Virus record (IMG/VR): IMGVR_UViG_3300032225_000555
Span: 1-39,990 of that record
Length of the DNA: 39,990 nucleotides
From: a virus
Lineage: Duplodnaviria > Caudoviricetes
Strand: one strand, 5' to 3'
Of the stretch, positions 10,770-38,996 are shown piece after piece. The notes under the pieces were generated by a model. It worked only from the letters and a program-made list of their open reading frames with translations, did not search any database and was not told the DNA's origin. A program made the position numbers and the translations under genes. The first letter of the stretch is position 1; every line of letters starts with the position of its first letter.

Positions 10770-10980
10770 TTCTTCTTTTTCTTTCTTCTGGTTGGAATCC
10801 GAATCGTTGTTCGGGTAGCGGATCGTTGTTGGCTTGCTCGATTTGAGAGGTCAGCGTCCCGAGGTCTTCTCTCCTCGGAAGGCATTTGTGTATTCTTCGC
10901 CACTCTCTAATCAACTTGAGTTCGTCGTCCCTGTTGACCTCGATTGACGCTCCACAAGAGCAAGTTTCTTCTATCATCAT
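10762..10980 (-). CDS. Small Cys/His zinc-binding hypothetical protein
   Basis: ETCSCGA...WRRIHKC; ATGA-coupled to the FAD oxidoreductase gene. Confidence 0.65.
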   Translation of the reverse strand: MMIEETCSCGASIEVNRDDELKLIREWRRIHKCLPRREDLGTLTSQIEQANNDPLPEQRFGFQPEERKRRNG

Positions 10981-11792
10981 GTAAGGGAGCGTAGCCAGTT
11001 CTCGATTACGGCTGGAGTGATGGCGTATCCCGATCTTGCAAGGTTGCCGATTGAGGTGAACTTATTGCCAAACTCTGGAAGAGTCGGTTCGTTTCCTTTC
11101 ACTCTGGCTCGTATGCCTGTAAGTATTTGCCAAGTTGCTCCCGGTTGGACGAGGTTGGCTTGTTCGGCGGCCTCGAGCATCTCTTCGACTCCTTTGATGG
11201 CGTCTGCCTCGGTTTTGGCGACACTTGAGCCTAGTCGGATTTCGCCGTGATTGTCGGCAATCGTAATCGTGTGGTACGGACGTATGTGATGGATACGGAG
11301 CGGTCCGTGGTCGAGGACGGCGTTCGTCGAGTAGAGGGTTGCTCCCCAAAGGTCTTCGTGTTGGACGGAAAGGTCCCCTCCGTAAGCTCCAGTTGCGTTC
11401 AGGATTGCATCGAACTCGTAAGTGTCTTCTCTAGTTACGATTCGGTTGCCTTCGATAAAGAAGACTTGCTCCTCGATGTCCGGGTTGACGAGGCTTTTCT
11501 CCGGGTCGACCAACCACCAGTCCTTTTGAGTTTTCACCTCCGGGTTACGCCAATGCGACGTGAAAGCGTATTGAGTTACGTCTGCTCCCCATTTCTCGTA
11601 CCAACGCCAAGACTGCTCGATAGTTCCTCGTAACTCTGGCTTGAACCATTGAGGACGTATTGTTGCTAAAGCACATCTCGAGGCGGCTCTTCCGGGAGCG
11701 TGGTCGAAGACGACTACTTCGTGACCGAGTTCTCTGCCGATTCTTGCTGTTGCGGATCCTGCGATGCCTGACCCGATTATGCCTATTCTCAT
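10977..11792 (-). CDS. FAD-dependent oxidoreductase, D-amino-acid/glycine oxidase (DAO/ThiO) family
   Basis: GIIGSGIAG Rossmann motif, ASRCALA, ATGA, GIRAR, GNLARSGYAITPA. Confidence 0.85.
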   Translation of the reverse strand: MRIGIIGSGIAGSATARIGRELGHEVVVFDHAPGRAASRCALATIRPQWFKPELRGTIEQSWRWYEKWGADVTQYAFTSHWRNPEVKTQKDWWLVDPEKSLVNPDIEEQVFFIEGNRIVTREDTYEFDAILNATGAYGGDLSVQHEDLWGATLYSTNAVLDHGPLRIHHIRPYHTITIADNHGEIRLGSSVAKTEADAIKGVEEMLEAAEQANLVQPGATWQILTGIRARVKGNEPTLPEFGNKFTSIGNLARSGYAITPAVIENWLRSLT

Positions 11793-12694
11793 TTTGGACT
11801 CCTCACTAACAACTTACCTGTTTCTTTGAATACTCGCTTGCGAGGTTGGTCGACTCCAGTCCAGTCGTTCTTCTCTCCGAGGTAGTGGTGAGGGATTGCC
11901 CTGCTCCTCGCCTCGAACATCTGTTCGGCTAGAGGACTCGGACACTTGAGGAGGTTCTCCAACATAGCGTCTATGTCCATACCGAGATAGTAGTGACCTT
12001 CGGCGAGAGCGTATACGTCACACAACGACGTTTCAGCCTCTTCAATCTTGGCGTCGACTCCGAGGTCTGTGAGCCTGTTTAAGAGGTCGAGAGAGATTTG
12101 GTCGAGCTCGGCTACGTCTTCGGCTTTGTTGCCGTCTGGCAGGTTGTCGTATAGGAGAGCCAGTCCCTTTCTTGGACCTGAGGAGTGAGCGTGACCCATG
12201 TCTGACGCTTGAAGGGGAAGTCCGTTGACCTTCCAGAGCATTTCGGCAGTTTTGTATGATGCCCAACGTCCGTTTCCGTAGATGGACTCAAGAGCCTCAA
12301 CCACTCGATCCCACGATTGAGTCGGAGAGTCGGTGACTACGTATTTGCGAATCCAGTTCAATAGGCCGCCGTTGTTTTCGGCGATAGATACGAGTTCTCC
12401 GAGGTGGCGTTCCAACTTGGCAGGGACTCGATGAGCTCGGCGTTCCGTCCCGGTCGGTAACTTGAGTTGCTCGGCTTTCGGGATTGCTGGCTCTCGATGG
12501 TTTTCGAAGACTTGGAGCGTTGAGTTCATGTTGTAGTAAGCGACGTAAAGGAACGTCAACCAGACTGCTTGCTCCGAGTCGAGCTCTAGGATTTGACCGA
12601 ACTCTTTGAGGCAGGGATAAACGTCATCTATCTCGTTCGAGGCGACGGACTCGGAGTGGAAGAGAGCATACGTCTTCCAATCTAGTTGCGTCAT
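11789..12694 (-). CDS. Amino-acid:DNA transferase (aGPT-PPlase clade 2, HhH-glycosylase-like fold)
   Basis: EIDDVY, GTERRAHR, GNGRWASYKTAEM, SSGPRKGL, ETSLCD, HYYLGMDI motifs. Confidence 0.8.
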   Translation of the reverse strand: MTQLDWKTYALFHSESVASNEIDDVYPCLKEFGQILELDSEQAVWLTFLYVAYYNMNSTLQVFENHREPAIPKAEQLKLPTGTERRAHRVPAKLERHLGELVSIAENNGGLLNWIRKYVVTDSPTQSWDRVVEALESIYGNGRWASYKTAEMLWKVNGLPLQASDMGHAHSSGPRKGLALLYDNLPDGNKAEDVAELDQISLDLLNRLTDLGVDAKIEEAETSLCDVYALAEGHYYLGMDIDAMLENLLKCPSPLAEQMFEARSRAIPHHYLGEKNDWTGVDQPRKRVFKETGKLLVRSPK

Positions 12695-13554
12695 TTGACT
12701 TTAGAGGATCCTGATTTGAGATCCTCAGCCATACCATCTTCTCGTTTAGTTCTCGACTCTTTGGCCTTAGCAGTTTCGACAGCGTAAGTGAAACAATCCT
12801 TCATACCTCGGAGAGCGTAATACACGACCGAATAGCGATAAGCTCCCTCTTTGCGAGGAGTCATTGGAGTTACTCCGTGGACGTATTTATACCCGGGGAA
12901 GAAACTTACCCAACCATCTCGAGCCGTGAACGTGAAGTCGTATTCGGGGAAGTGGAGATAGCCGCCAGCCATGTCCCTTCGGATTACTGGCATCGCTGAC
13001 CAAGTCGCAAAGTTGAATCCGTCACGGTGATACGGAAGGGTTGAAGACTTGTTGACGACTCCCGAAGTCCAAAGAGCGTCGTCCGTCATACGCCACTCGT
13101 TCTCGAGTCCAGCCTTAGATAGATTATCGACATCATGTTCGTAGAGATCCGGAGCAAACTCTCTGAGCATCTTGGCAAACTTCTCGGCAAACTTGATTAG
13201 TACAGCGTGTTCGTCAGGTTGCTCGTTGGCGAGAGTTGTTGGACGGCAAGACTCTCGACGTTGAAATACCTTTCGTGGAGCCATACCGAAAGTTCGGCTA
13301 ATGTTCTTGAGTCCTGTTGATTGTCGGATTGTCGATCCGTACTTTATGTTGAGGACGGCCGCTCGGAGCAGAGCTACTTCCTCTTCCATAGGAAAGCAAG
13401 CGAAGATTGGTTCTTCCGTTTCATCGTCAATCCAGATACCCGGTCCGTGTAACTCCGGGTCGATACTTGGAACCTCAGTACCGACTAGCTCGGTAGCCTC
13501 GTCTTCCGTTAAAACTCTCTTGACTCTAATGATTGGAAGGTCACTCAGTTTCAC
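12691..13554 (-). CDS. TET/JBP-family 2-oxoglutarate/Fe(II) dioxygenase
   Basis: TSGVVN...YHRD (HxD), GGYLHFPEY, VHGVTP (distal His), RYSVVYY (2OG-binding Arg). Confidence 0.85.
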   Translation of the reverse strand: MKLSDLPIIRVKRVLTEDEATELVGTEVPSIDPELHGPGIWIDDETEEPIFACFPMEEEVALLRAAVLNIKYGSTIRQSTGLKNISRTFGMAPRKVFQRRESCRPTTLANEQPDEHAVLIKFAEKFAKMLREFAPDLYEHDVDNLSKAGLENEWRMTDDALWTSGVVNKSSTLPYHRDGFNFATWSAMPVIRRDMAGGYLHFPEYDFTFTARDGWVSFFPGYKYVHGVTPMTPRKEGAYRYSVVYYALRGMKDCFTYAVETAKAKESRTKREDGMAEDLKSGSSKVK

Positions 13555-14209
13555 TTGGTGCTTGCTCCTTATACTCGGTTTCTAAAAGATGAACTATTGC
13601 GTCAGCGTTGGAAGTGATGTTGTTTTTGTTTCGGTAATCCAACAACTTTTCCATTAGCCAGATGTAAGTGGCGTTCGGGTAATCGGCTATCAACATACGA
13701 GTTGCTTTTTGAGCGTAACGCTCGGCATACTCCTCGAGGCTAGGGATTGTTAGAGTTCCACTCTGACCTGTTTCGCCGGTCTTGACCTCGCTGTAAGAGC
13801 TTACAGTTGGAGCAACAGACTCCTCGAGTAACGCTCTCAGGTCGTCAAGATCGGTCTGCTCGTATCCAGAGCCGTCCAAGTCTGGAATTGAAGACAACAA
13901 CTCGAGAAGTTTCTCATTATCGTATTCTCCAAGATCGGAAGAGCGATTGTCGATGGCTACTATCTTGCCAGCCGTTTCCTCGTCAACGTCGACAAAAGTA
14001 ACGTCGATTGTTTCCCAACCTAGCTCTACGGCCGCTTGGAACGTATGGTTACCAGCAAGAATCTCCCGAGTGCGAGAGTTCACGGTGATTGGCTTGTATT
14101 GACCATACGTTTTGAGCGACTCGGCAATAACTTTTACATTGCCTTTTCTTGGATTGTTGGCGTACGGCTTGAGATCCGTAACGGCAACTGATTCGATTTT
14201 CAGACTCAT
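13541..14209 (-). CDS. ParB/Srx N-terminal-domain protein
   Basis: LKPYANNPR, SLKTYGQYKPI, ILAGNHT, IDNRSSDL; no methylase domain fused. Confidence 0.85.
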   Translation of the reverse strand: MSLKIESVAVTDLKPYANNPRKGNVKVIAESLKTYGQYKPITVNSRTREILAGNHTFQAAVELGWETIDVTFVDVDEETAGKIVAIDNRSSDLGEYDNEKLLELLSSIPDLDGSGYEQTDLDDLRALLEESVAPTVSSYSEVKTGETGQSGTLTIPSLEEYAERYAQKATRMLIADYPNATYIWLMEKLLDYRNKNNITSNADAIVHLLETEYKEQAPSETE

Positions 14210-14226
14210 TAGTTCTCCTTACCTAG

Positions 14227-14235
14227 ATTGTATCA
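14227..14235 (-). promoter_or_regulatory. Putative extended -10 promoter for the modification/packaging/structural operon
   Basis: TGATACAAT on the minus strand followed by AAGGAG RBS and the ParB-like start. Confidence 0.5.
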
Positions 14236-14649
14236 CTAGAACGGAGTGTCGTCGGAAACGGCTGTCGGTGTAGACCAGTCTGGAGTTGGCGTGGCTGAAC
14301 GGAACTGGTCGTTCGAAGAGGTTGACTCCGACTTGTCGTATCGCTCTGCCTTAGCAACTGTGTCTGCCTTGATAATGAGCGATTTGATAGACGTTCCGTC
14401 TTTTTCGTAAGTTTCTTGGTAGAGCTCGCCAGACACGATTACTTTAGAACCCTTGGTGTATAGAACCTCTGGAAGTCTGTCCCAGATAGTGACCTTGAAC
14501 CAGATTGTTTCAGCATCAGTCCACTCGCCGTTCTTCTTCTCTCGAGGAGTTACGGCTACGGTAAGGTTGCTGACCCACTTGCCCTGCTTGGTCTGACGGA
14601 TCTCTATGTCACGTCCGAGGTTGCCAATGATTGTTAGAGGGATGTTCAT
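14236..14649 (-). CDS. ssb: Single-stranded DNA-binding protein
   Basis: IIGNLGRD, WFKVTIW, KGSKVIVSG, acidic tail DDTPF. Confidence 0.92.
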   Translation of the reverse strand: MNIPLTIIGNLGRDIEIRQTKQGKWVSNLTVAVTPREKKNGEWTDAETIWFKVTIWDRLPEVLYTKGSKVIVSGELYQETYEKDGTSIKSLIIKADTVAKAERYDKSESTSSNDQFRSATPTPDWSTPTAVSDDTPF

Positions 14650-14653
14650 TTGT

Positions 14654-15859
14654 TTATTCGCTTTCTTTTATTAGTTGTTTTGGTAACAGAATCCGTAATG
14701 CGATTTCTGCTTGTTGCGGAACCACGCCGTTGCCAGCGAGTTTCAACTCTTCGTTTCTGGTCAATCCACAATCGGTTATCCAACCCTCCGGGAGTCCCAT
14801 CATCCATTCCGTAAAGACGCTTGAAAGTCTGTGAGCTCCGTCTTTGCCGTCTGGCTTGGTTGGTGCTGGTGCTGGTCGACCAAGGACGAACTCCCAACGC
14901 TTGATTGCTGGCTCGTACTTTCCCCAAATCTGAGGATTGTCTACTCCGGATCTTGCGATGTTCGTAAGAGCAACTTGATTGCCGTTGGCGATACGCTCTT
15001 CAGCCGTGATGGTCGTATCTTGTTTAGTTCCCTCCGAGGCTAGAGGAGTCGGCAGAACGTATACGTCGCTCGCAAGAGTCGAGTAACGTTTCGTGTTGTG
15101 TCCTGTGTTCTTGGCGTCGTCGACCAACGGAGTTGAAAGCAACACTATGTCCTCTCGAAGATTGCCTGTCGTGCTACGGACTGAGCCTCCCTCAACTCCA
15201 CGCCTCAACTGACGCTCCAAAGCCTCCCCGGTCCTTGCTGGTAAAGAGTCCATAGTGTTTGGAGTTGGTAAGAGATTGGCGGCTATCAAGTCTTCAACGA
15301 ACTCAGCCGGATTAGCGTTACTGTTTTTCCTAAACTCTGGTGAACGGCCGCTCAATGCCGTTGTCAAAGTTCCGAACAATTCGATACCCTCCTGCTCCAA
15401 ACGAATTGCCACGCCAAGACTTGCTCCGGGCATTCCTTTAGCTCGACCCTCAATGTAGTCTTCTCGCCTTTGAAGATAGTCGTCCAAGTCTTCGTCGTGA
15501 TTACGAATGTGACCAACAGTTGGAGTTGGCAAGTTGATTAGGTCGACAATCTGGTCCCGGAGCATCACGTAATGACCCTTCGCCTCTTTGACTTTCGCCG
15601 AGACCGCTCCACCATCTCCCTCGACTCCCATTGGAGTCATAAGTAGTTTGACGTTAGAACTCTCTTGAGGCGACGATGAAGATCCGTTCCCTGCGATGCG
15701 GAGCTCCTGCGTCGGAAGCTCGTACGCTTGTCCACCTAGCGTCATACCCGAGGGTGACCAAGTCCCCGAGAACAGCTCCAAGTGCTCGCAATACAGGCTC
15801 TGTATCGGTTTCTCCCATACAGAACGGGCATCGTTCCAAATCGCTATTGGCTTTAGCAT
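14654..15859 (-). CDS. C5-cytosine methyltransferase C-terminal subunit (motifs IX-X) with ~6 LPTP repeats
   Basis: RLSSVFTEWMMGLPEGW and LKLAGNGVVP; overlaps the N-terminal subunit gene by 206 nt in another frame. Confidence 0.75.
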   Translation of the reverse strand: MLKPIAIWNDARSVWEKPIQSLYCEHLELFSGTWSPSGMTLGGQAYELPTQELRIAGNGSSSSPQESSNVKLLMTPMGVEGDGGAVSAKVKEAKGHYVMLRDQIVDLINLPTPTVGHIRNHDEDLDDYLQRREDYIEGRAKGMPGASLGVAIRLEQEGIELFGTLTTALSGRSPEFRKNSNANPAEFVEDLIAANLLPTPNTMDSLPARTGEALERQLRRGVEGGSVRSTTGNLREDIVLLSTPLVDDAKNTGHNTKRYSTLASDVYVLPTPLASEGTKQDTTITAEERIANGNQVALTNIARSGVDNPQIWGKYEPAIKRWEFVLGRPAPAPTKPDGKDGAHRLSSVFTEWMMGLPEGWITDCGLTRNEELKLAGNGVVPQQAEIALRILLPKQLIKESE

Positions 15860-16211
15860 TAAGTATTCCTCTCACGTTTTCGATTACTACGAGTTTTGGT
15901 TGTAACGTTTCTATTGCTCGAGCGAACTCAGACCAGAGTCCACTCCTCGTCCCCTCTTTGAGTCCGGCTCTCTTACCAGCGACGCTCAAGTCTTGGCAAG
16001 GGAATCCGCCAGTCAGGATCTCGACAGGTTCAACCTGAGTGAAGTCGACCTCTCGGACATCGTGGTAGTTCGGTATCCCGGAGAAGTTCTTTTCTAAAAC
16101 CTTGGACGGAGCTTTATCAAACTCACAATGCCAGACGACTCTGCCACCTGTGACGTTAGTTACGGCTAGGTCTAGGCCGCCGTAGCCACTAAATAACGAT
16201 CCGATTCTCAT
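15654..16211 (-). CDS. C5-cytosine methyltransferase N-terminal catalytic subunit (motifs I-VIII)
   Basis: SLFSGYGG, GGFPCQ, ENV, RRER. Confidence 0.9.
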   Translation of the reverse strand: MRIGSLFSGYGGLDLAVTNVTGGRVVWHCEFDKAPSKVLEKNFSGIPNYHDVREVDFTQVEPVEILTGGFPCQDLSVAGKRAGLKEGTRSGLWSEFARAIETLQPKLVVIENVRGILNAKANSDLERCPFCMGETDTEPVLRALGAVLGDLVTLGYDARWTSVRASDAGAPHRRERIFIVASREF

Positions 16212-16702
16212 AGTTGTCTACGCAATCTGACGAAGTGTCCAACGATTGGAGTTGTCTCGAGAAAGTCTGCCTCGGCATCTGTGTAAGCGATTAGGACGCT
16301 CGGAGATCCGGCGGCTTGCCCTTGAGTTCCGTCTGGACGATAGAACGACACTCTCCCTTTGAGGAAGAGAATCCCGGTTGCTTTGCTCCAAACTTGGTCG
16401 AAGAAAGTCTTTGTTTCGGTTCTAGCAAATACCAACGCTAGTCCCCCCCCCGAGTGATTGGCTAGTCGATTGAGCCAGATGTCCATACCCGGACCATACG
16501 GCGGATTTAGCCAGACTCGTCCGTTCCAAGTCTGAGCAAGTCCGTCGTCCTCGATTGTGTAGTGGAGCTTGGCAGTACTCCAAGGTCGATTTATCGGTGA
16601 GCAAGGATCCAAGTCGAACTCCCCTAGAGCTCGGAGGAGGGAGGGAGGCGTAAGCCAGACATCCGTCTTTGATACTGAGGTTTCGCCGCCGAGATTAACC
16701 AT
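16208..16702 (-). CDS. Phage N6-adenine DNA methyltransferase (Dam-like)
   Basis: WLTP, FDLDPC, DGL, NPPY, ARTET. Confidence 0.88.
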   Translation of the reverse strand: MVNLGGETSVSKTDVWLTPPSLLRALGEFDLDPCSPINRPWSTAKLHYTIEDDGLAQTWNGRVWLNPPYGPGMDIWLNRLANHSGGGLALVFARTETKTFFDQVWSKATGILFLKGRVSFYRPDGTQGQAAGSPSVLIAYTDAEADFLETTPIVGHFVRLRRQL

Positions 16703-17366
16703 TAGAGTTGCTCCTCTGGTCTACGATGGCTGACCTGATTTCTTCCCCAAGAGCGTATGGAACCATTGAGCGAGTCTTAGCGTTGGAGCGTCCTTGAGTT
16801 CCTGTGCTTGAGCCTCGAGGAGCGGCTATGTGGCAATCCGATCCGTTGGCACAAGCAGGTCGAGGAGTCCAACCCGGGACTTCTCCCCAAAGGTCAGTTG
16901 GTTTCATCCGGTCGTCGCCGTATTGGCAATAAGTGATTGTTCGTCTAGGGAGGTCAGCGAGAGGAGGTAACTTTCGTAACATCCCTCTCGGGTTCTCGAT
17001 TAGGTATCCAAGTTTTGGAGCGAGGTCGTGTATGAGGTTGCGAACGTGAACTACGAGCTCTTGACTGAGGACGGCTCTATCGGTTCGAGGTTGAGGGAAA
17101 GATCCGCCACTAATCCAATGATGACCCATTGAGGCTACGGAGAACGCAGTACACGGAGGACTAGCCCAAACAAAGTCTGGTTGTCCGTAAGTTTTGATTA
17201 GGTATTCGGCAGTCAACTCGAGGATGTCGATGTTCTCGGTTGCGAAAAAGTCCGAGTCCAACTCGAAGGAGATTACGTTGTCGCCAGCGTCCTCGAAAGC
17301 TCGAGTTGATGAACCTGTGCCTGAGAAGAAATCAAAGACGAGGAGTGGAGTATCGGATTTGCCCAT
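16695..17366 (-). CDS. Short C5-cytosine methyltransferase-like protein
   Basis: DFFSGTGS (motif I), ASPPC (IV), IENP (VI), YCQYG...KPTDLW. Confidence 0.8.
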   Translation of the reverse strand: MGKSDTPLLVFDFFSGTGSSTRAFEDAGDNVISFELDSDFFATENIDILELTAEYLIKTYGQPDFVWASPPCTAFSVASMGHHWISGGSFPQPRTDRAVLSQELVVHVRNLIHDLAPKLGYLIENPRGMLRKLPPLADLPRRTITYCQYGDDRMKPTDLWGEVPGWTPRPACANGSDCHIAAPRGSSTGTQGRSNAKTRSMVPYALGEEIRSAIVDQRSNSNG

Positions 17367-22259: not shown

Positions 22260-22520
22260 TTAGAACTCCACTCTTCCACACTCGCAAGTTGGACGAGCCT
22301 CGCCAATCTCGTTGATTAGAAAGTCCTTCATGTATGCTCGTTCGTCTGCTGTGAATCGGTATGCTCCGTCGAAGGTCTTGCCCTGACGGATGTTGTTGCC
22401 GATTTCGCCGAACAATCTAGTTCCCATACATCTGTCCGAAACGCAGACAAGGTTGCCTAGTGCTGTTGACCAGATTTCGTTCTCTCGTCCCTTAGGACCT
22501 GAGTAAGTTGTAGTGCTCAT
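22260..22520 (-). CDS. Hypothetical early protein (first gene of second early unit)
   Basis: ATG 22520 preceded by GAGAAATAGGGAG. Confidence 0.7.
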   Translation of the reverse strand: MSTTTYSGPKGRENEIWSTALGNLVCVSDRCMGTRLFGEIGNNIRQGKTFDGAYRFTADERAYMKDFLINEIGEARPTCECGRVEF

Positions 22521-22529
22521 TTTGTTGCT

Positions 22530-22563
22530 CCCTATTTCTCGGGAGGCTCGCCATCCGAACCTC
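22530..22563 (-). promoter_or_regulatory. Conserved leader: 8-bp hairpin with GAUGG loop followed by GAGAAAUAGGG start motif
   Basis: Structural paralogue at 29580-29614 with compensatory changes. Confidence 0.7.
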
Positions 22564-22571
22564 ATAGGACT

Positions 22572-22601
22572 ATTATTGCCAAGTCGAGCCGAAAAAGTCA
22601 A
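22572..22601 (-). promoter_or_regulatory. Early sigma-70-type promoter P2
   Basis: TTGACT-N18-AATAAT, same layout as P1. Confidence 0.7.
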
Positions 22602-24437: not shown

Positions 24438-24775
24438 TAAGAGGTCTTCCACATCAACTCGACCTGACGAGCGATTACGGCAGTAGCCATAGACGCTGAC
24501 TCTAGGATCTTGAGTTTGGTCTTGACCCGATTCACCTCGGCTCGAGCGAGATCTCTCTCCAACCTAGCGTCCGAGGACTCGAGTTTGGCGACAGCCTGTT
24601 TCTCGGCTATGGTTCCTGCCTCGCATCTCAACATCGCTAGGGACTCGACCTTATCAAGTTGGTTCTCTGCCTCGGCTAGTTTTGTTTCAGCCAAGAAGAG
24701 AGCCTCGGGAGCTCGCTCAAGTTCAAGTTGAATCCTCTGGAGCTCCGAAATTACGTTGGTTGGTATTGGTTCCAT
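24437..24775 (-). CDS. Coiled-coil hypothetical protein
   Basis: 112 aa helical; AGGCTAAAC start motif. Confidence 0.7.
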   Translation of the reverse strand: MEPIPTNVISELQRIQLELERAPEALFLAETKLAEAENQLDKVESLAMLRCEAGTIAEKQAVAKLESSDARLERDLARAEVNRVKTKLKILESASMATAVIARQVELMWKTS

Positions 24776-25058
24776 TGTTTAGCCTTTCATTTGGAACGAT
24801 GTGACTCTTTTGAATACAGTCCCTATTACCGCAGAGTCGAACTCCGGGTCTGTATGGTTTTCCCCATCTGTCAAGCGGGTTGTCGTCGTAGTCGAAGTTG
24901 CCACGATGCGGACGGCAGATGCCGTAAGAGGTTTTGACGGCTCGGACCGGGATTGCGAGGCAGGATCGGCAGAGGATTTCTTGGCGGCGTTCCTTACGTA
25001 ACTCGTAGAAACTCTGCTCGCTCGGGTTGTCGTTTCCGCACTTGAGGCATTGAAACAA
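24723..25058 (-). CDS. Zinc-finger protein with HNH/His-Cys-like C-terminal loop
   Basis: CxxC...CxxC...RLCGNRDCIQKSH; TTG start with GGAGG RBS. Confidence 0.6.
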   Translation of the reverse strand: MFQCLKCGNDNPSEQSFYELRKERRQEILCRSCLAIPVRAVKTSYGICRPHRGNFDYDDNPLDRWGKPYRPGVRLCGNRDCIQKSHIVPNERLNNGTNTNQRNFGAPEDST

Positions 25059-25087
25059 GTCGTCCTCCTCTCGTTCCTATCATAGAA

Positions 25088-25170
25088 CGAAAAGAAGACA
25101 GGAGTGCTGTCTAAAACGTTCGGAGAAATAGGGGATAGAACCACGAACGGATAGCACTCCTGCCTGTTCT
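25088..25170 (-). ncRNA. Candidate ~80-nt small RNA with anti-start-motif loop
   Basis: Extended -10 TGCTATGAT at 25173-25181; stems 25099-25108/25153-25162 and 25117-25122/25144-25149; loop contains CCCCUAUUUCUC; 3' U-rich tail. Confidence 0.55.
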
Positions 25171-25181
25171 TTATCATAGCA

Positions 25182-25322
25182 CTAAAGTCCGATTAGATTT
25201 CTCAAGCTACGAATCTTACGCTTGAAGTTCGGTTTAGTGAAGAAGAGCCAACGATTACGAAGACGTAGCCACTCTTGAAAAAGCTCGGCTCTGTAACGTC
25301 TAACGAACTTATGCTTTGCCAT
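25182..25322 (-). CDS. Small basic hypothetical protein (46 aa, not in ORF track)
   Basis: MAKHKFVRRYRAELFQEWLRLRNRWLFFTKPNFKRKIRSLRNLIGL; overlaps the upstream stop. Confidence 0.5.
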   Translation of the reverse strand: MAKHKFVRRYRAELFQEWLRLRNRWLFFTKPNFKRKIRSLRNLIGL

Positions 25323-25503
25323 TAGGTTTTTGGTCAGCGTATTTGAATCGGTCTTCAATGACCCGGATAGCCTCTCGAAGTCCCTCTCGATAAAGAGTGT
25401 TCGGGACTCGTTCGATTTCGGCTTGAAGGATCTTGATTAGTTCTTCTCGCTCGGTGACTCGACCTTGCTTGCGATAGTATTCTCTAACTCGTTCGGCTGA
25501 CAT
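25309..25503 (-). CDS. Hypothetical protein
   Basis: 64 aa, GGAGG RBS. Confidence 0.65.
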   Translation of the reverse strand: MSAERVREYYRKQGRVTEREELIKILQAEIERVPNTLYREGLREAIRVIEDRFKYADQKPNGKA

Positions 25504-25944
25504 CTAAGCCTCCTGAATCCAAGTTTGAGTTTCGTTGGTTTCGATACAATCGCAATAAGGTCCTTCATCTTCAGGATCGTCAACACAACACGCTTGAGGT
25601 CGTCCACACGGACAATCTTCGTCATTGACCTCGGCGTAAAACTTAGCCAAAGCCTCCTCCTCCGAGTTGGCTCTAACCAATACAGTTTCGCCAGACAAAA
25701 CTACAAACTCAAGTGGCAACGACTCGTCAGAGCTCAGGGCATTTACAGGCATGGAGTCTAACGAGTCGTTACCTCCAGTATAGCCGCTAAGAAACTTGTT
25801 GAGAATCTCTTGAGCGTTCTCTGGCGTGTTCGTCTTCCTGCTGTATCGAGGTCTGTTGACCAGACTTACCAATAACCAGATGAGTCCGATTGTTCCAAGA
25901 GCCACCATTCCTAATCCGATTACTTGTGATTCGTTGTTATTCAT
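25504..25944 (-). CDS. Membrane-anchored Cys-rich hypothetical protein
   Basis: N-terminal hydrophobic helix; acidic Cys-rich C-terminus; GGAGG RBS. Confidence 0.65.
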   Translation of the reverse strand: MNNNESQVIGLGMVALGTIGLIWLLVSLVNRPRYSRKTNTPENAQEILNKFLSGYTGGNDSLDSMPVNALSSDESLPLEFVVLSGETVLVRANSEEEALAKFYAEVNDEDCPCGRPQACCVDDPEDEGPYCDCIETNETQTWIQEA

Positions 25945-26203: not shown

Positions 26204-26643
26204 TTGTGACCACTTCCACTACACTCTAGGCAGATTGCGGATCCATCTGGAGTTGGCACTCCGTAAATACGTCCATCACCTTCGCAAAGGTCGCAAACTA
26301 TGTCATCTAACTTAACTTGTTTAGTCGAGATTGACCAAACAATCGCAGACTTGCCGGATCTAGTTGGCGAACGTTTGCCTGTGTCTTCGACCATTCCGAG
26401 CTTGACAAGTTGCGAACGTCGAGTGCGAATACCAGAATCCGAGGCGTAGAAAGTTTCCTGCTTTCGAAGTTGACGACCAAACTGGAGTGCGAGGTATCTC
26501 GAGATAAGTAGTTCGTCAATCATAGGTCCTTCGTCACGAAGGATCTTGATGATGTCTTTCATCGTCTGAGTTATCTTCCCCTCGTCTAGCGAGAGAGCGG
26601 CGTCACGGCTAGTGTCCGGGTCAGTTGTTCTCCAGAGAGTCAT
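26200..26643 (-). CDS. Winged-helix-like DNA-binding protein with C-terminal CxxCxGxG zinc finger
   Basis: RTTDPDTS, SGIRTRRSQLVKLG, CDLCEGDG...CLECSGSG. Confidence 0.7.
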   Translation of the reverse strand: MTLWRTTDPDTSRDAALSLDEGKITQTMKDIIKILRDEGPMIDELLISRYLALQFGRQLRKQETFYASDSGIRTRRSQLVKLGMVEDTGKRSPTRSGKSAIVWSISTKQVKLDDIVCDLCEGDGRIYGVPTPDGSAICLECSGSGHK

Positions 26644-27464
26644 TTCTCGACCTCCTCAGGAAGTTCGTTCGACTTGCTGATGATTAGTTCCTTGAGGGTT
26701 ACGTTGTCCCCGAGAGAGTTCACGAACGGCTCGTCTAGTGAGGCAGAGTTGTCGTTCCAAATCTTACGGAGTTCGGTTTTGCTCTTGGCGTCAGCAATCT
26801 TCTTGACCAGTTTGATTCGGGACTTCGGATCGATAACTGCCGATTCGACTGGAGCTTGAACGGCTGGAGTTTCTGGAGCAACTGGAGCGACTTTCACGTC
26901 AGCCTGGTCCATTTCTTCCGAGGTGTAGATACCTGACAAGTCGTTCGGAAACGCTTTACGGATTGCTAGAGCCTCGGCGACCTTCGCCAACATCACGTCA
27001 GGCATCTTGCTCCAAAGACCAGATGGACGACCATCCTTGCCTAGAGGACAATAGCTCGTAATCGTTGCGACGGCGTAGAGAGGTTCGGCGAAACCAATAC
27101 GATAGATGCCGACTTTAGCCGCTCGAGGCAGTTCGCTCAATAGCCATACGTCTTTCCACACTCCATCCTCTCCACACCAGAGAGGTTGAGTCTGTCCAGC
27201 GTATTCTCCTGAACGTTGAGCGATGATACGAAGTCCGTCGATTGAACTTTGGATTGTGTAGCGATTCGACCCGGAGCGAGAGTCCCAACGTCCAATCATG
27301 TAAATCTGACGGCTGAAAGGATCTAGTCCGGTCTTCTGTGCGTAGTGAAGGAACAGAGCGAGGTCCCCAGAGGGAGCGTCGCTTAGTCCGATTTGTTTTA
27401 GAGCCGCCAACTGAGTGGCGTCCCATTGTGTTTGGTCTTGCTGAACTGCTAGTACTGTACTCAT
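26640..27464 (-). CDS. bet: Phage recombination protein Bet (RecT/Bet ssDNA-annealing family)
   Basis: TGLDPFSRQIY, IDGLRIIAQRSG, WSKMPDVMLAKVAEALAIRKAFP. Confidence 0.92.
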   Translation of the reverse strand: MSTVLAVQQDQTQWDATQLAALKQIGLSDAPSGDLALFLHYAQKTGLDPFSRQIYMIGRWDSRSGSNRYTIQSSIDGLRIIAQRSGEYAGQTQPLWCGEDGVWKDVWLLSELPRAAKVGIYRIGFAEPLYAVATITSYCPLGKDGRPSGLWSKMPDVMLAKVAEALAIRKAFPNDLSGIYTSEEMDQADVKVAPVAPETPAVQAPVESAVIDPKSRIKLVKKIADAKSKTELRKIWNDNSASLDEPFVNSLGDNVTLKELIISKSNELPEEVEK

Positions 27465-27473
27465 TTATTTCTC

Positions 27474-27800
27474 CTATTTCTCATTGGTGTCGGTAGTTGA
27501 ATCGTAGAACGAGCCACCGACATTGGTTATCTCGTCTAAGTCCATTTGGACGTTTATCCCGAAAGCGATGTCTAGTCCGATAGCGTCAGCCATGAAACAG
27601 ACTTTATTTCCTCTTGGATAAGATCCGATTAGAAGGACTTGATTGCCGAGCTTGATTGACTGCTCGGTTGAAACGGCAAGTTTGTCCCGGGTGAAGACCA
27701 CGATTGGTTTGCCGTCCCCTAGTCGAACTCCTATCAGAGTCGAGTTCGTTAGGACTAGAGGAGGGTTGGTGACGATGCCTCTTAGAGCCAGAGTTCTCAT
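27474..27800 (-). CDS. Degenerate SsbB-like OB-fold protein
   Basis: LRGIVTNPP...RDKLA...SIKLGNQVLLIG...ADAIGLDIAFG resembles actinobacterial SsbB. Confidence 0.5.
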   Translation of the reverse strand: MRTLALRGIVTNPPLVLTNSTLIGVRLGDGKPIVVFTRDKLAVSTEQSIKLGNQVLLIGSYPRGNKVCFMADAIGLDIAFGINVQMDLDEITNVGGSFYDSTTDTNEK

Positions 27801-28851: not shown

Positions 28852-29147
28852 TCTGCGTCCTCCTTTGAGCAGTAGCCACAAACGTCTGTCGGTGGCTCAA
28901 CTTCCATTAGACCTGCCTCGAGGATTTCGTCAATCCTCTTCCAGATTGCGATAGTCCTCTTGATAGATTGCTCTTGCTCTTCGACTTGGACGACGATTTC
29001 GTGGTCGAGGTTCGACTTGAAGACGTGACCTTCTGGAGCGACGAGGACGCAACCTCGTCCAGTTACCGAGGTCGAATCTATCCAGACTTTCATGTCTACG
29101 AGTTTCGTCATTGACGAAGTGATTGTTGCGTGTGCTTGTATCGACAT
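28848..29147 (-). CDS. Hypothetical early protein
   Basis: Start 29147 preceded by GAGAAATAGGGAG. Confidence 0.7.
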   Translation of the reverse strand: MSIQAHATITSSMTKLVDMKVWIDSTSVTGRGCVLVAPEGHVFKSNLDHEIVVQVEEQEQSIKRTIAIWKRIDEILEAGLMEVEPPTDVCGYCSKEDAE

Positions 29148-29167
29148 TTGCTTTCTCCCTATTTCTC

Positions 29168-29579: not shown

Positions 29580-29614
29580 CCCTATTTCTCTCGGAGATCC
29601 GCCATTCGAATCTC
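29580..29614 (-). promoter_or_regulatory. Conserved leader: 8-bp hairpin with AAUGG loop followed by GAGAAAUAGGG start motif
   Basis: Paralogue of 22530-22563. Confidence 0.7.
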
Positions 29615-29625
29615 TCTGTAACTCA

Positions 29626-29655
29626 ATTATTGACAACATCCAACCCGGAAGTCAA
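29626..29655 (-). promoter_or_regulatory. Early sigma-70-type promoter P1
   Basis: TTGACT-N18-AATAAT. Confidence 0.7.
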
Positions 29656-30078
29656 GGATTTGACCAAACTATTTCTCTGGCGAGTCGCAAGCCTAAAACC
29701 CTTATGTTTACAGGGCAATCAGCAGGAGGGAGGAGGGAGCAGGGAGAACGACCTGTCACGGATCGCTCTCCTCCAGCCGATTCCAGCAGTCAGGTTTCGG
29801 GATTGGTCGAACGAGCTCCAGCCACTACGGAGGGAGCAGTTGCGTCATACTTTGTCGAGGTCCTAACGGCTGAGGACGGAGGGCAACTCGGATCTTCGTC
29901 ACCTCGACAAAACTTGTTACTCTCGGTGGAACGTAACTTGTTTCACCCGAGGCTCGTCTTCCCGGGTACGCCAAATCGGCAGCCTCTAACGCTCGATGAC
30001 GTGGTGGATTAGACCGACGTTGTCCGGGTGACCGAACGAAGTCAATCCTCCGTCGAGAGTTGAAGCCGTCCAAGCGAC

Positions 30079-38920: not shown

Positions 38921-38942
38921 TTTGTTTAGCCTTTCGGATTAG

Positions 38943-38996
38943 GTGACGAGATTGGTTGAGCAAAGGCTAAACGAATTGTTCAACCAACCTCGCCAC
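38943..38996 (-). other. 21-bp imperfect hairpin with loop antisense to the AGGCUAAAC start motif
   Basis: Arms 38943-38963 and 38976-38996; minus-strand loop UUCGUUUAGCCU. Confidence 0.65.

Follow-up and report, generated by a model that had tools for sequence, protein, structure and literature searches.

A predicted phage hairpin RNA whose loop varies together with a tag in the ribosome-binding regions of putative early genes

Introduction

In bacteriophage T4, the endonuclease RegB and the repressor RegA shut down early messages group-wise via a feature shared by their ribosome-binding regions. Other phages use RNA for control of their own genes: C4 and the CI RNA of P4 are processed multi-stem RNAs, which act on sites of their own operon via termination and give immunity. 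The C4 antisense RNA of P1 and P7 corresponds to family RF01695 (PMC2864571, passage on this RNA). In actinobacteria, the 6C (B11) RNA carries C-rich loops on a stable stem and, according to the relevant passages, binds many messages without Hfq, ProQ, or another chaperone (PMC6486639).

Cluster K mycobacteriophages contain a 13-bp start-associated sequence (SAS), of which four K1 genomes have one reversed copy (PMC3203893, passages on the motif). In the corresponding parts of papers from 2011 to 2024, the role of SAS in mycobacteriophages was called unknown (PMC3203893, PMC7302621, PMC11373665). A motif was also described for Cluster EF Microbacterium phages, e.g. AnnaSerena (PMC7302621, in part). 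In the literature searched, i.e. mostly open-access main texts with supplements aside, no link was found between such tags and antisense RNA, and the main-text passages considered from two surveys of structured RNAs contain no such element (PMC2864571, PMC5737381).

Here, we analyze a hairpin locus of an uncultured phage in a DNA stretch of 39,990 bp, hereafter called the window. An earlier note, made from the letters of this DNA, had proposed a trans-acting RNA that shuts off translation of early genes by analogy to P1 C4 or P4 CI RNA.

Results

Gene content and probable host

The window is a complete phage genome of 39,990 bp with direct terminal repeats, and its minus strand carries nearly all genes. 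Scanning of 64 ORFs against PHROGs gave matches to head, tail, terminase, methyltransferase, WhiB, RusA, exonuclease, and Bet/RecT-like families; an FmdB-like protein is also encoded, beside WhiB. No PHROGs match to an integrase or a CI-like repressor was obtained among the 64 ORFs. The earlier observation that the phage lacks a recognizable repressor thus held, with WhiB and the FmdB-like protein present. The best cultured matches of the phage were a Pontimonas phage and an Actinomycetia phage. Based on these matches and on the presence of WhiB, an actinobacterial host is likely. A scan of the window for tRNAs and tmRNA found none.

The minus strand also includes a DNA-modification block (10977-17366), encoding tRNA-guanine transglycosylase-like and ParB-like proteins as well as four methyltransferase ORFs. 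Two ORFs of this block with overlapping coordinates (15654-16211 and 14654-15859) correspond to consecutive portions of a single PHROG family and may represent a split or frameshifted gene.

The hairpin locus

The hairpin is located between the last ORF of an upstream operon and a Cys-rich zinc-finger-like gene that served as marker gene. The locus comprises the following features, where G numbers denote the phage genomes compared:

25182-25358, minus strand: small ORF that closes the upstream operon and stops immediately ahead of the -10 element; homologues in G001, G003, and G054
25173-25181, minus strand: extended -10 element, TG-C-TATGAT (TGCTATGAT), predicted promoter of the hairpin RNA, abutting the stop of the upstream ORF
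25088-25167, minus strand: predicted hairpin RNA of about 80 nt, assigned by fold energy; at the same place in seven relatives
25153-25165, minus strand: 5′ arm of the 13-bp outer stem, assigned by fold and compensatory changes
25144-25149, minus strand: 5′ arm of the inner stem (perfect, 6 bp), assigned by fold
25123-25143, minus strand: apical loop of 21 nt, C/U-rich, assigned by fold
25117-25122, minus strand: 3′ arm of the inner stem, assigned by fold
25096-25108, minus strand: 3′ arm of the outer stem, assigned by fold and compensatory changes
25088-25095, minus strand: U-rich tail UCUUUUCG, possible terminator tail
25079-25084, minus strand: second -10-like hexamer, TATGAT, candidate for a separate promoter of the zinc-finger gene
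24723-25058, minus strand: Cys-rich zinc-finger-like marker gene, conserved, marking the locus

The nested hairpin folds with −30.4 kcal/mol (z = −7.1), and none of 200 shuffled sequences was as stable. Its architecture is the one previously described, with perfect stems of 10 bp (25153-25162/25099-25108) and 6 bp, the former being part of the 13-bp outer stem that contains one G-U pair; the extended -10 and the U-rich tail were likewise recovered (25181-25173 and 25095-25088). The antisense word CCCUAUUUCUC (25123-25133) lies inside the apical loop and is mostly unpaired in the ensemble. In an alternative fold, the U-rich tail pairs with the ribosome-binding site of the following gene, giving a hairpin at 25061-25100 (minus strand; −23.7 kcal/mol) that is also present in G001 and G006.

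The earlier note had placed the hairpin in an intergenic gap. While the hairpin is as described, the gap is not free of ORFs: a frame of 132 codons (24779-25177, minus strand) traverses the hairpin and overlaps the marker gene, with its ATG inside the -10 box. Internal stops are missing from this frame in three genomes (the window, G001, and G006), and eight other genomes show 3-11 of them. Since its product is less conserved than the marker protein (52% vs 78%), the frame is probably a shadow. The marker gene itself had no PHROG match.

At the gathering score, Rfam yielded no match in the window and none in 12 related loci, except for a tRNA. With E values up to 10, the only match within 24700-25600 was a weak one of a miRNA hairpin to 25061-25100. 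The covariance model of P1 C4 (RF01695) matched neither in the window nor in 24700-25600. Membership in the 6C family was likewise not indicated, as an Rfam model match was absent and the window hairpin has only one apical loop.

A tag before the starts of putative early genes

The sequence GAGAAATAGG was found in five exact copies in the genome as compared to 0.10 expected, and none of 100 shuffles reached this number. Four sense copies, all of them named in the earlier note, occupy 29581-29590, 29158-29167, 27473-27482, and 22531-22540 on the gene strand, each before a translation start; the sole reversed copy (25123-25132) is situated in the 21-nt loop, as had been claimed. The distance from the end of each tag 10-mer to the ATG is 8-11 nt. 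Tags and promoter-like sequences are arranged as follows:

29626-29655, minus strand: promoter-like sequence P1, TTGACT-18-AATAAT, retained in G001
29580-29590, minus strand: target tag 1, preceding the first gene of P1 (29168-29569); best duplex among 61 called starts
29157-29167, minus strand: target tag 2, preceding the second gene (ATG at 29147)
27473-27482, minus strand: target tag 3, preceding the Bet/RecT-like annealing gene (26640-27464)
22572-22601, minus strand: promoter-like sequence P2, TTGACT-18-AATAAT
22530-22540, minus strand: target tag 4, preceding the first gene of P2 (ATG at 22520)

Complementarity to the loop extends over 11 nt at three tags and over 10 nt at the bet tag; for the 11-nt complement, the earlier note had given a word of 12 letters. 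When the 61 called starts were ranked by duplex energy, the four tagged sites occupied ranks 1, 2, 3, and 5. Hybrids of loop and tag reach −15.6 to −20.0 kcal/mol, with an opening cost of 2.3 kcal/mol for the RNA and 1.4-3.7 kcal/mol for the targets. In view of the two consensus promoters and of bet, the four tagged genes are likely early genes.

A near-copy of the tag (29668-29677, minus strand) is found just 5′ of the -35 of P1, i.e. outside the transcript. Short 5′ leader hairpins (at approximately 29592-29615 and 22543-22563, minus strand) were noted between P1 or P2 and the respective tag, with the same layout in G001 and G006. This succession of promoter, leader hairpin, and tag recalls ESAS plus SAS of Cluster K.

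The tag resembles the Cluster K type of motif in being an asymmetric repeat that occurs in one orientation a few nucleotides before non-structural starts, together with a lone reversed copy. According to the passages describing them, the Cluster K and EF motifs are likewise asymmetric, occupy the ribosome-binding position of non-structural genes, are conserved beyond the Shine-Dalgarno core, and often follow consensus promoters; in K1, the reversed copy is away from any start. However, these phages have a 13-bp consensus with 10-19 copies, whereas the window uses another word of 10-11 nt with four sense copies, and the same passages propose no RNA.

Partners in cis and in trans

For the loop at 25123-25143, the longest complement within 45 nt downstream was only 4-5 nt in all eight family members compared (see below). 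The tags are located 2.3-4.5 kb upstream and 2.6 kb downstream of the hairpin. A different situation was encountered at a further element:

38943-38996, minus strand: second hairpin, between the major-tail and the tail-chaperone genes; z = −4.9

A complement to the loop of this hairpin lies 8 nt downstream, in the ribosome-binding site of the tail-chaperone gene (38924-38934, minus strand). All nine genomes covering the region possess the hairpin, with differing stems, and in each of them a partner of 6-11 nt exists within 26 nt downstream. The loop also matches four other starts (24775, 17366, 10514, and 1993), each preceded by the word AGGCTAAAC. Judged by this arrangement, the second hairpin is probably a cis-acting, pseudoknot-like element; its 8-nt linker may be too short to span a stem of about 20 bp in a simple pseudoknot. 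As the second hairpin has a cis partner and the first has none, distant partners for the loop at 25123-25143 are supported.

Conservation of the hairpin in related phages

Twelve close, non-redundant carriers of the marker gene were compared, including the window (G000). A long hairpin with a pyrimidine-rich loop was observed in eight of them (G000, G001, G006, G007, G003, G054, G005, and G055); these eight family members were chosen by eye for the pyrimidine-rich loop, and G055 is a fragment of 12 kb. The remaining four carriers had no such loop: the hairpin is long but has a loop of another kind in G002 and L013, is short in G004, and is absent from G009. Orthologous hairpins reached z-scores of −5.9, −5.3, −7.6, and −3.5.

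In the three alignable sequences, the outer stem is fully (100%) paired, with 7 of its 13 pairs changed on both sides. None of 500 shuffles matched this result, and slid controls were 36-46% paired. A TANNNT hexamer is found 7-8 nt before the stem in six of the eight family members (background 3.2%), and a seventh has TG-A-GATAAT; this spacing would place the RNA start at the base of the stem. In seven of the eight, by raw count, a second TANNNT follows no more than 22 nt behind the stem, and two of these hexamers stand directly before a start without ribosome-binding site. The second hexamer suggests that the zinc-finger gene has a promoter of its own, in which case the hairpin need not be its leader. 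Folding energies did not favor the gene strand, which was better than the opposite strand in two of the eight members, equal in one, and worse in five.

Beyond the close relatives, inspection by eye showed no such hairpin at the distant marker-gene homologues (L010, L235-L254). It is also missing from the cultured, distant phage phiPsal1, a carrier of the marker gene. The homologue in this Pontimonas phage (MG835450; L483 26758-27000) is unannotated. Among 95 further records searched for the marker gene, only the three already known carry it. Scanning metagenomes with the marker gene produced no match, and scanning with Bet added only L398, a near-duplicate of G054; blastn of the locus against cultured phages gave no match. 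Exact loop-pattern scans of viral contigs retrieved 8 and 27 stretches, with G006 as the sole relative; the other stretches were set aside as chance or coding matches.

Loops and tags change together

G001 is the closest relative, sharing 52 of the 56 window proteins tested. Its loop contains CCCUGUUUCUC in place of CCCUAUUUCUC, i.e. one base is changed from A to G. Correspondingly, the tags preceding bet and the first genes of P1 and P2 have C instead of T, and C is also found at the second-gene position; this single-base co-change of loop and tags counts as one event. The untranscribed near-copy upstream of the -35 of P1 retains T in both the window and G001. As a loop G still pairs with U, we infer that an evolutionary path via a G-U pair exists.

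Further family members show other combinations. In G006, the stem is wholly different, the loop A is retained, and its three tags have T. G007 has a different loop, the complement of which (AGGGGAAACA/GGGAAACAAAA) precedes four starts. In G003 and G054, pairing of the loop reaches 8 nt only, with sites of the AAGGGAGA type, and neither G005 nor G055 has a 9-nt target among its own starts. The loop of G006 fits the starts of the window (six) better than its own (two). A broad count of T versus C patterns, which includes coding matches and was therefore set aside, gave 5 T and 6 C for the window, 0 T and 9 C for G001, and 4 T and 1 C for G006.

Altogether, six of the eight loops have at least three own targets of 8 nt, and four have at least two of 9 nt. 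Loops matched their own starts better than foreign starts in an exact permutation test (p = 0.003, 0.011, and 0.009 at 8, 9, and 10 nt), in which the loops were chosen by position and only eight orthologues entered; p-values are optimistic here, the genomes being related. Excluding the window, the seven remaining genomes gave p = 0.002, 0.029, and 0.026, respectively. A 12-genome matrix was left out of the test as circular, since the loops of G009, G011, G013, and G016 had been found by target matching; four energies calculated for swapped loops and sites were left out as well. For the window loop, four own targets of 10 nt were counted as compared to none in the other seven genomes, and 33 additional phages averaged 0.00; the G001 loop has three own targets of this length and none in the other seven.

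A blind screen, in which loops of strong hairpins from 41 phage genomes were compared with called starts, returned 10 of 221 gene-strand loops with at least two own 9-nt targets (four with at least three), two of the ten being loops of the window itself and some others (G009, G010, and G016) resembling chance. Corresponding controls were 79 of 8840 foreign pairs (16 with at least three targets) and 2 of 212 opposite-strand loops (none with at least three). A baseline of cross-matching exists between C/U loops and purine-rich ribosome-binding sites. The match of G009 was dropped, as its three targets are outside the ribosome-binding position.

A separate phage group (G011, G013, and G016; L022 ~18237, L024 ~7337, and L027 ~17013, respectively) displays a hairpin with an ACCCUU-type loop matching 3-7 starts of the AAGGGTA type. 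In G011 and G013, this hairpin is preceded by a TACACT hexamer.

Reversed tags in cultured phages

In Adephagia, the reversed SAS (58682-58694 of the record) is the sole antisense match of at least 8 nt in 39.6 kb. The gap separating genes 92 and 93 contains a nested hairpin (z = −5.7), and its loop holds this copy; according to the passage concerned, this gap appears to be the starting point of late transcription (PMC11373665). The region matches 161 Mycobacterium phage records, duplicates included. Validus, Niklas, and SgtBeansprout retain the loop with stem changes; when 110-nt segments of Validus and Niklas were folded, the antisense word was paired elsewhere in the best structure. In Thyatira, the Cluster K anti-tag loop is carried by a different stem and is situated not at the right but near the opposite end of the genome, with tRNA-Trp and gene 5 as neighbors (L259 995-1045, approximately 1035-1085 of the record). 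As read from these genomes, Cluster K1 and K5 mycobacteriophages share the layout of a tag and a reversed copy in a predicted hairpin loop.

The whole genomes of TM4, Pixie, and AnnaSerena contain no antisense copy of at least 8 nt in an intergenic loop, and no reversed tag in an intergenic loop was found in 1.3 kb of Ekdilam. TM4, Pixie, and AnnaSerena have retained their tags nevertheless, which means that tags can persist without the RNA. Inside the primase/helicase gene of Pixie (L256 ~18430), a long hairpin was noted, the loop of which matches the upstream-extended tag over 9 nt; this match was not counted and may be due to chance. A match of 8-12 nt at the start of TM4 gene 43 was not counted either.

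Discussion

Our preferred reading, to which we assign a probability of about 0.62, is that a chaperone-free antisense RNA blocks ribosome binding at early genes of this phage, in a manner resembling 6C rather than C4 or CI. Trans pairing is favored by the compensatory stems, the co-change of loop and tags, the better matching of own than of foreign starts, and the missing cis partner. Covariation of loop and target in related phages had been suggested as a check in the earlier note, and its outcome (compensatory stems, A→G with T→C, and own over foreign starts) agrees with the trans-acting RNA postulated there as far as pairing with the start tags is concerned; the shut-off of translation is the part that we infer.

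Transcription would start at about position 25166, driven by the -10 at the base of the stem, once the earliest phase is over. The product would be a free RNA of 75-80 nt, but could equally be the 3′ end of the message of the upstream operon or a leader. A rigid stem would provide a nuclease-resistant handle that keeps the C/U loop open, and the loop would pair with the single-stranded tag over 10-11 bp plus flanking pairs without the aid of a chaperone. By overlapping the AGGG/AGG core of the Shine-Dalgarno site, the duplex would exclude the ribosome and cause repression. In this way, promoter-proximal early genes and bet would be turned down together, and the address that spares most other messages would consist of the private bases located 5′ to the Shine-Dalgarno core. 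Side effects of the hairpin RNA on host messages are possible.

Covariation indicates pairing and is silent on the sign of its effect. The loop might therefore pair with the tags and bring about cleavage, premature termination, protection, or activation of early messages, which we regard as rather unlikely. Two tags directly follow a 5′ leader hairpin of a promoter-proximal message, and pairing at these places could affect message stability; P1 C4 and P4 CI do act through termination. Yet, the paired word covers a purine core in Shine-Dalgarno position, 8-11 nt before the ATG; a duplex at this place competes with the ribosome rather than helping it, and with 10-11 bp the duplex is short for a substrate of RNase III. 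It is improbable that the hairpin functions purely in cis, as terminator or stabilizer of the upstream operon or as leader of the zinc-finger gene, with an incidental loop match. Such a role would fit its place immediately behind the final ORF of that operon, its U-rich tail, and the capacity of this tail to pair with the next ribosome-binding site. Moreover, the second hairpin shows that these phages have anti-RBS loops with a cis partner, which then match other starts as well, and 4 of the 12 relatives lack the loop. Nevertheless, no cis partner longer than 5 nt was seen in any of the eight family members, the loop is retained or co-changed while stems are replaced, and the -10 stands at the stem base in six of the eight; also, a loop of 21 nt that follows remote tags is not required in a terminator.

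Slightly less probable still is a loop directed mainly at host messages, mimicking the anti-Shine-Dalgarno tail for host shut-off, with phage tags that merely resemble host sites. The tail of 16S rRNA is near-invariant, whereas the loops vary between phages and follow the tag of each phage. What speaks for host targets is the pyrimidine-rich nature of all loops, which makes them complementary to purine-rich ribosome-binding sites, and the regulation of many host messages by such pairing reported for 6C RNA in the passages cited (PMC6486639). The lowest probability is given to the view that the motif is bound as double-stranded DNA by a protein of phage or host, the reversed copy being another operator. 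A changed protein specificity would also co-change all copies, a near-copy exists just upstream of the -35 of P1, and the Cluster K motifs were left open as protein or RNA sites in the part of the paper dealing with them (PMC3203893). However, a DNA site would explain neither the Shine-Dalgarno spacing of the sense copies nor the placement of the lone reversed copy within a covarying hairpin loop across unrelated phages, and the untranscribed near-copy was not co-changed in G001.

As to known RNAs, the analogy to C4 and CI drawn in the earlier note proved loose, given the missing Rfam match, the single nested hairpin, and the dispersed targets; 6C RNA and the Cluster K SAS are closer. Like C4 and CI, the predicted RNA would be small, phage-encoded, and directed at genes of its own phage via short loop pairing, with no protein repressor at that step. 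In contrast to those multi-stem RNAs acting within their own operon, the window has a single hairpin with its own -10 and four dispersed ribosome-binding sites up to 4.5 kb away, and no complement longer than 5 nt within 45 nt downstream. With 6C, it shares the predicted chaperone-free pairing of a loop with several messages; 6C, as described in the passages cited, is host-encoded, conserved in sequence, and has more than one C-rich loop, whereas the window phage has one nested hairpin, the loop of which varies with a private tag. T4 RegB and RegA are proteins, whereas the reader of the tag would be an RNA here, its address co-evolving by base-pairing. The loop is complementary to ribosome-binding regions of several distant genes and covaries with them, both being features of an anti-RBS RNA acting in trans. 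Judged by fold and model matches, the predicted hairpin RNA is not a member of the C4, CI, or 6C families and resembles a multi-target anti-RBS RNA in its mode.

A wider proposal would extend this reading to actinobacterial phages in general: their early genes would carry a private barcode in the ribosome-binding site, and one hairpin RNA from a later promoter would read the barcode and switch the early set off, both being re-keyed together in evolution, even by one base, which would give each phage a lock and key of its own; this would also be the purpose of the K1 and K5 SAS. We hold this proposal tentatively, with odds somewhat below even.

The locus offers a kind of covariation that is out of reach for cultured clusters in which the motif does not vary, namely a natural one-base compensatory pair and several keys of loop and tag. 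It also indicates one testable element in Adephagia, which is cultured, editable, and covered by public RNA-seq. If the reading is right, phage biology would gain a protein-free switch from early to late expression, and actinobacteria a compact, re-addressable, and chaperone-free translational repressor.
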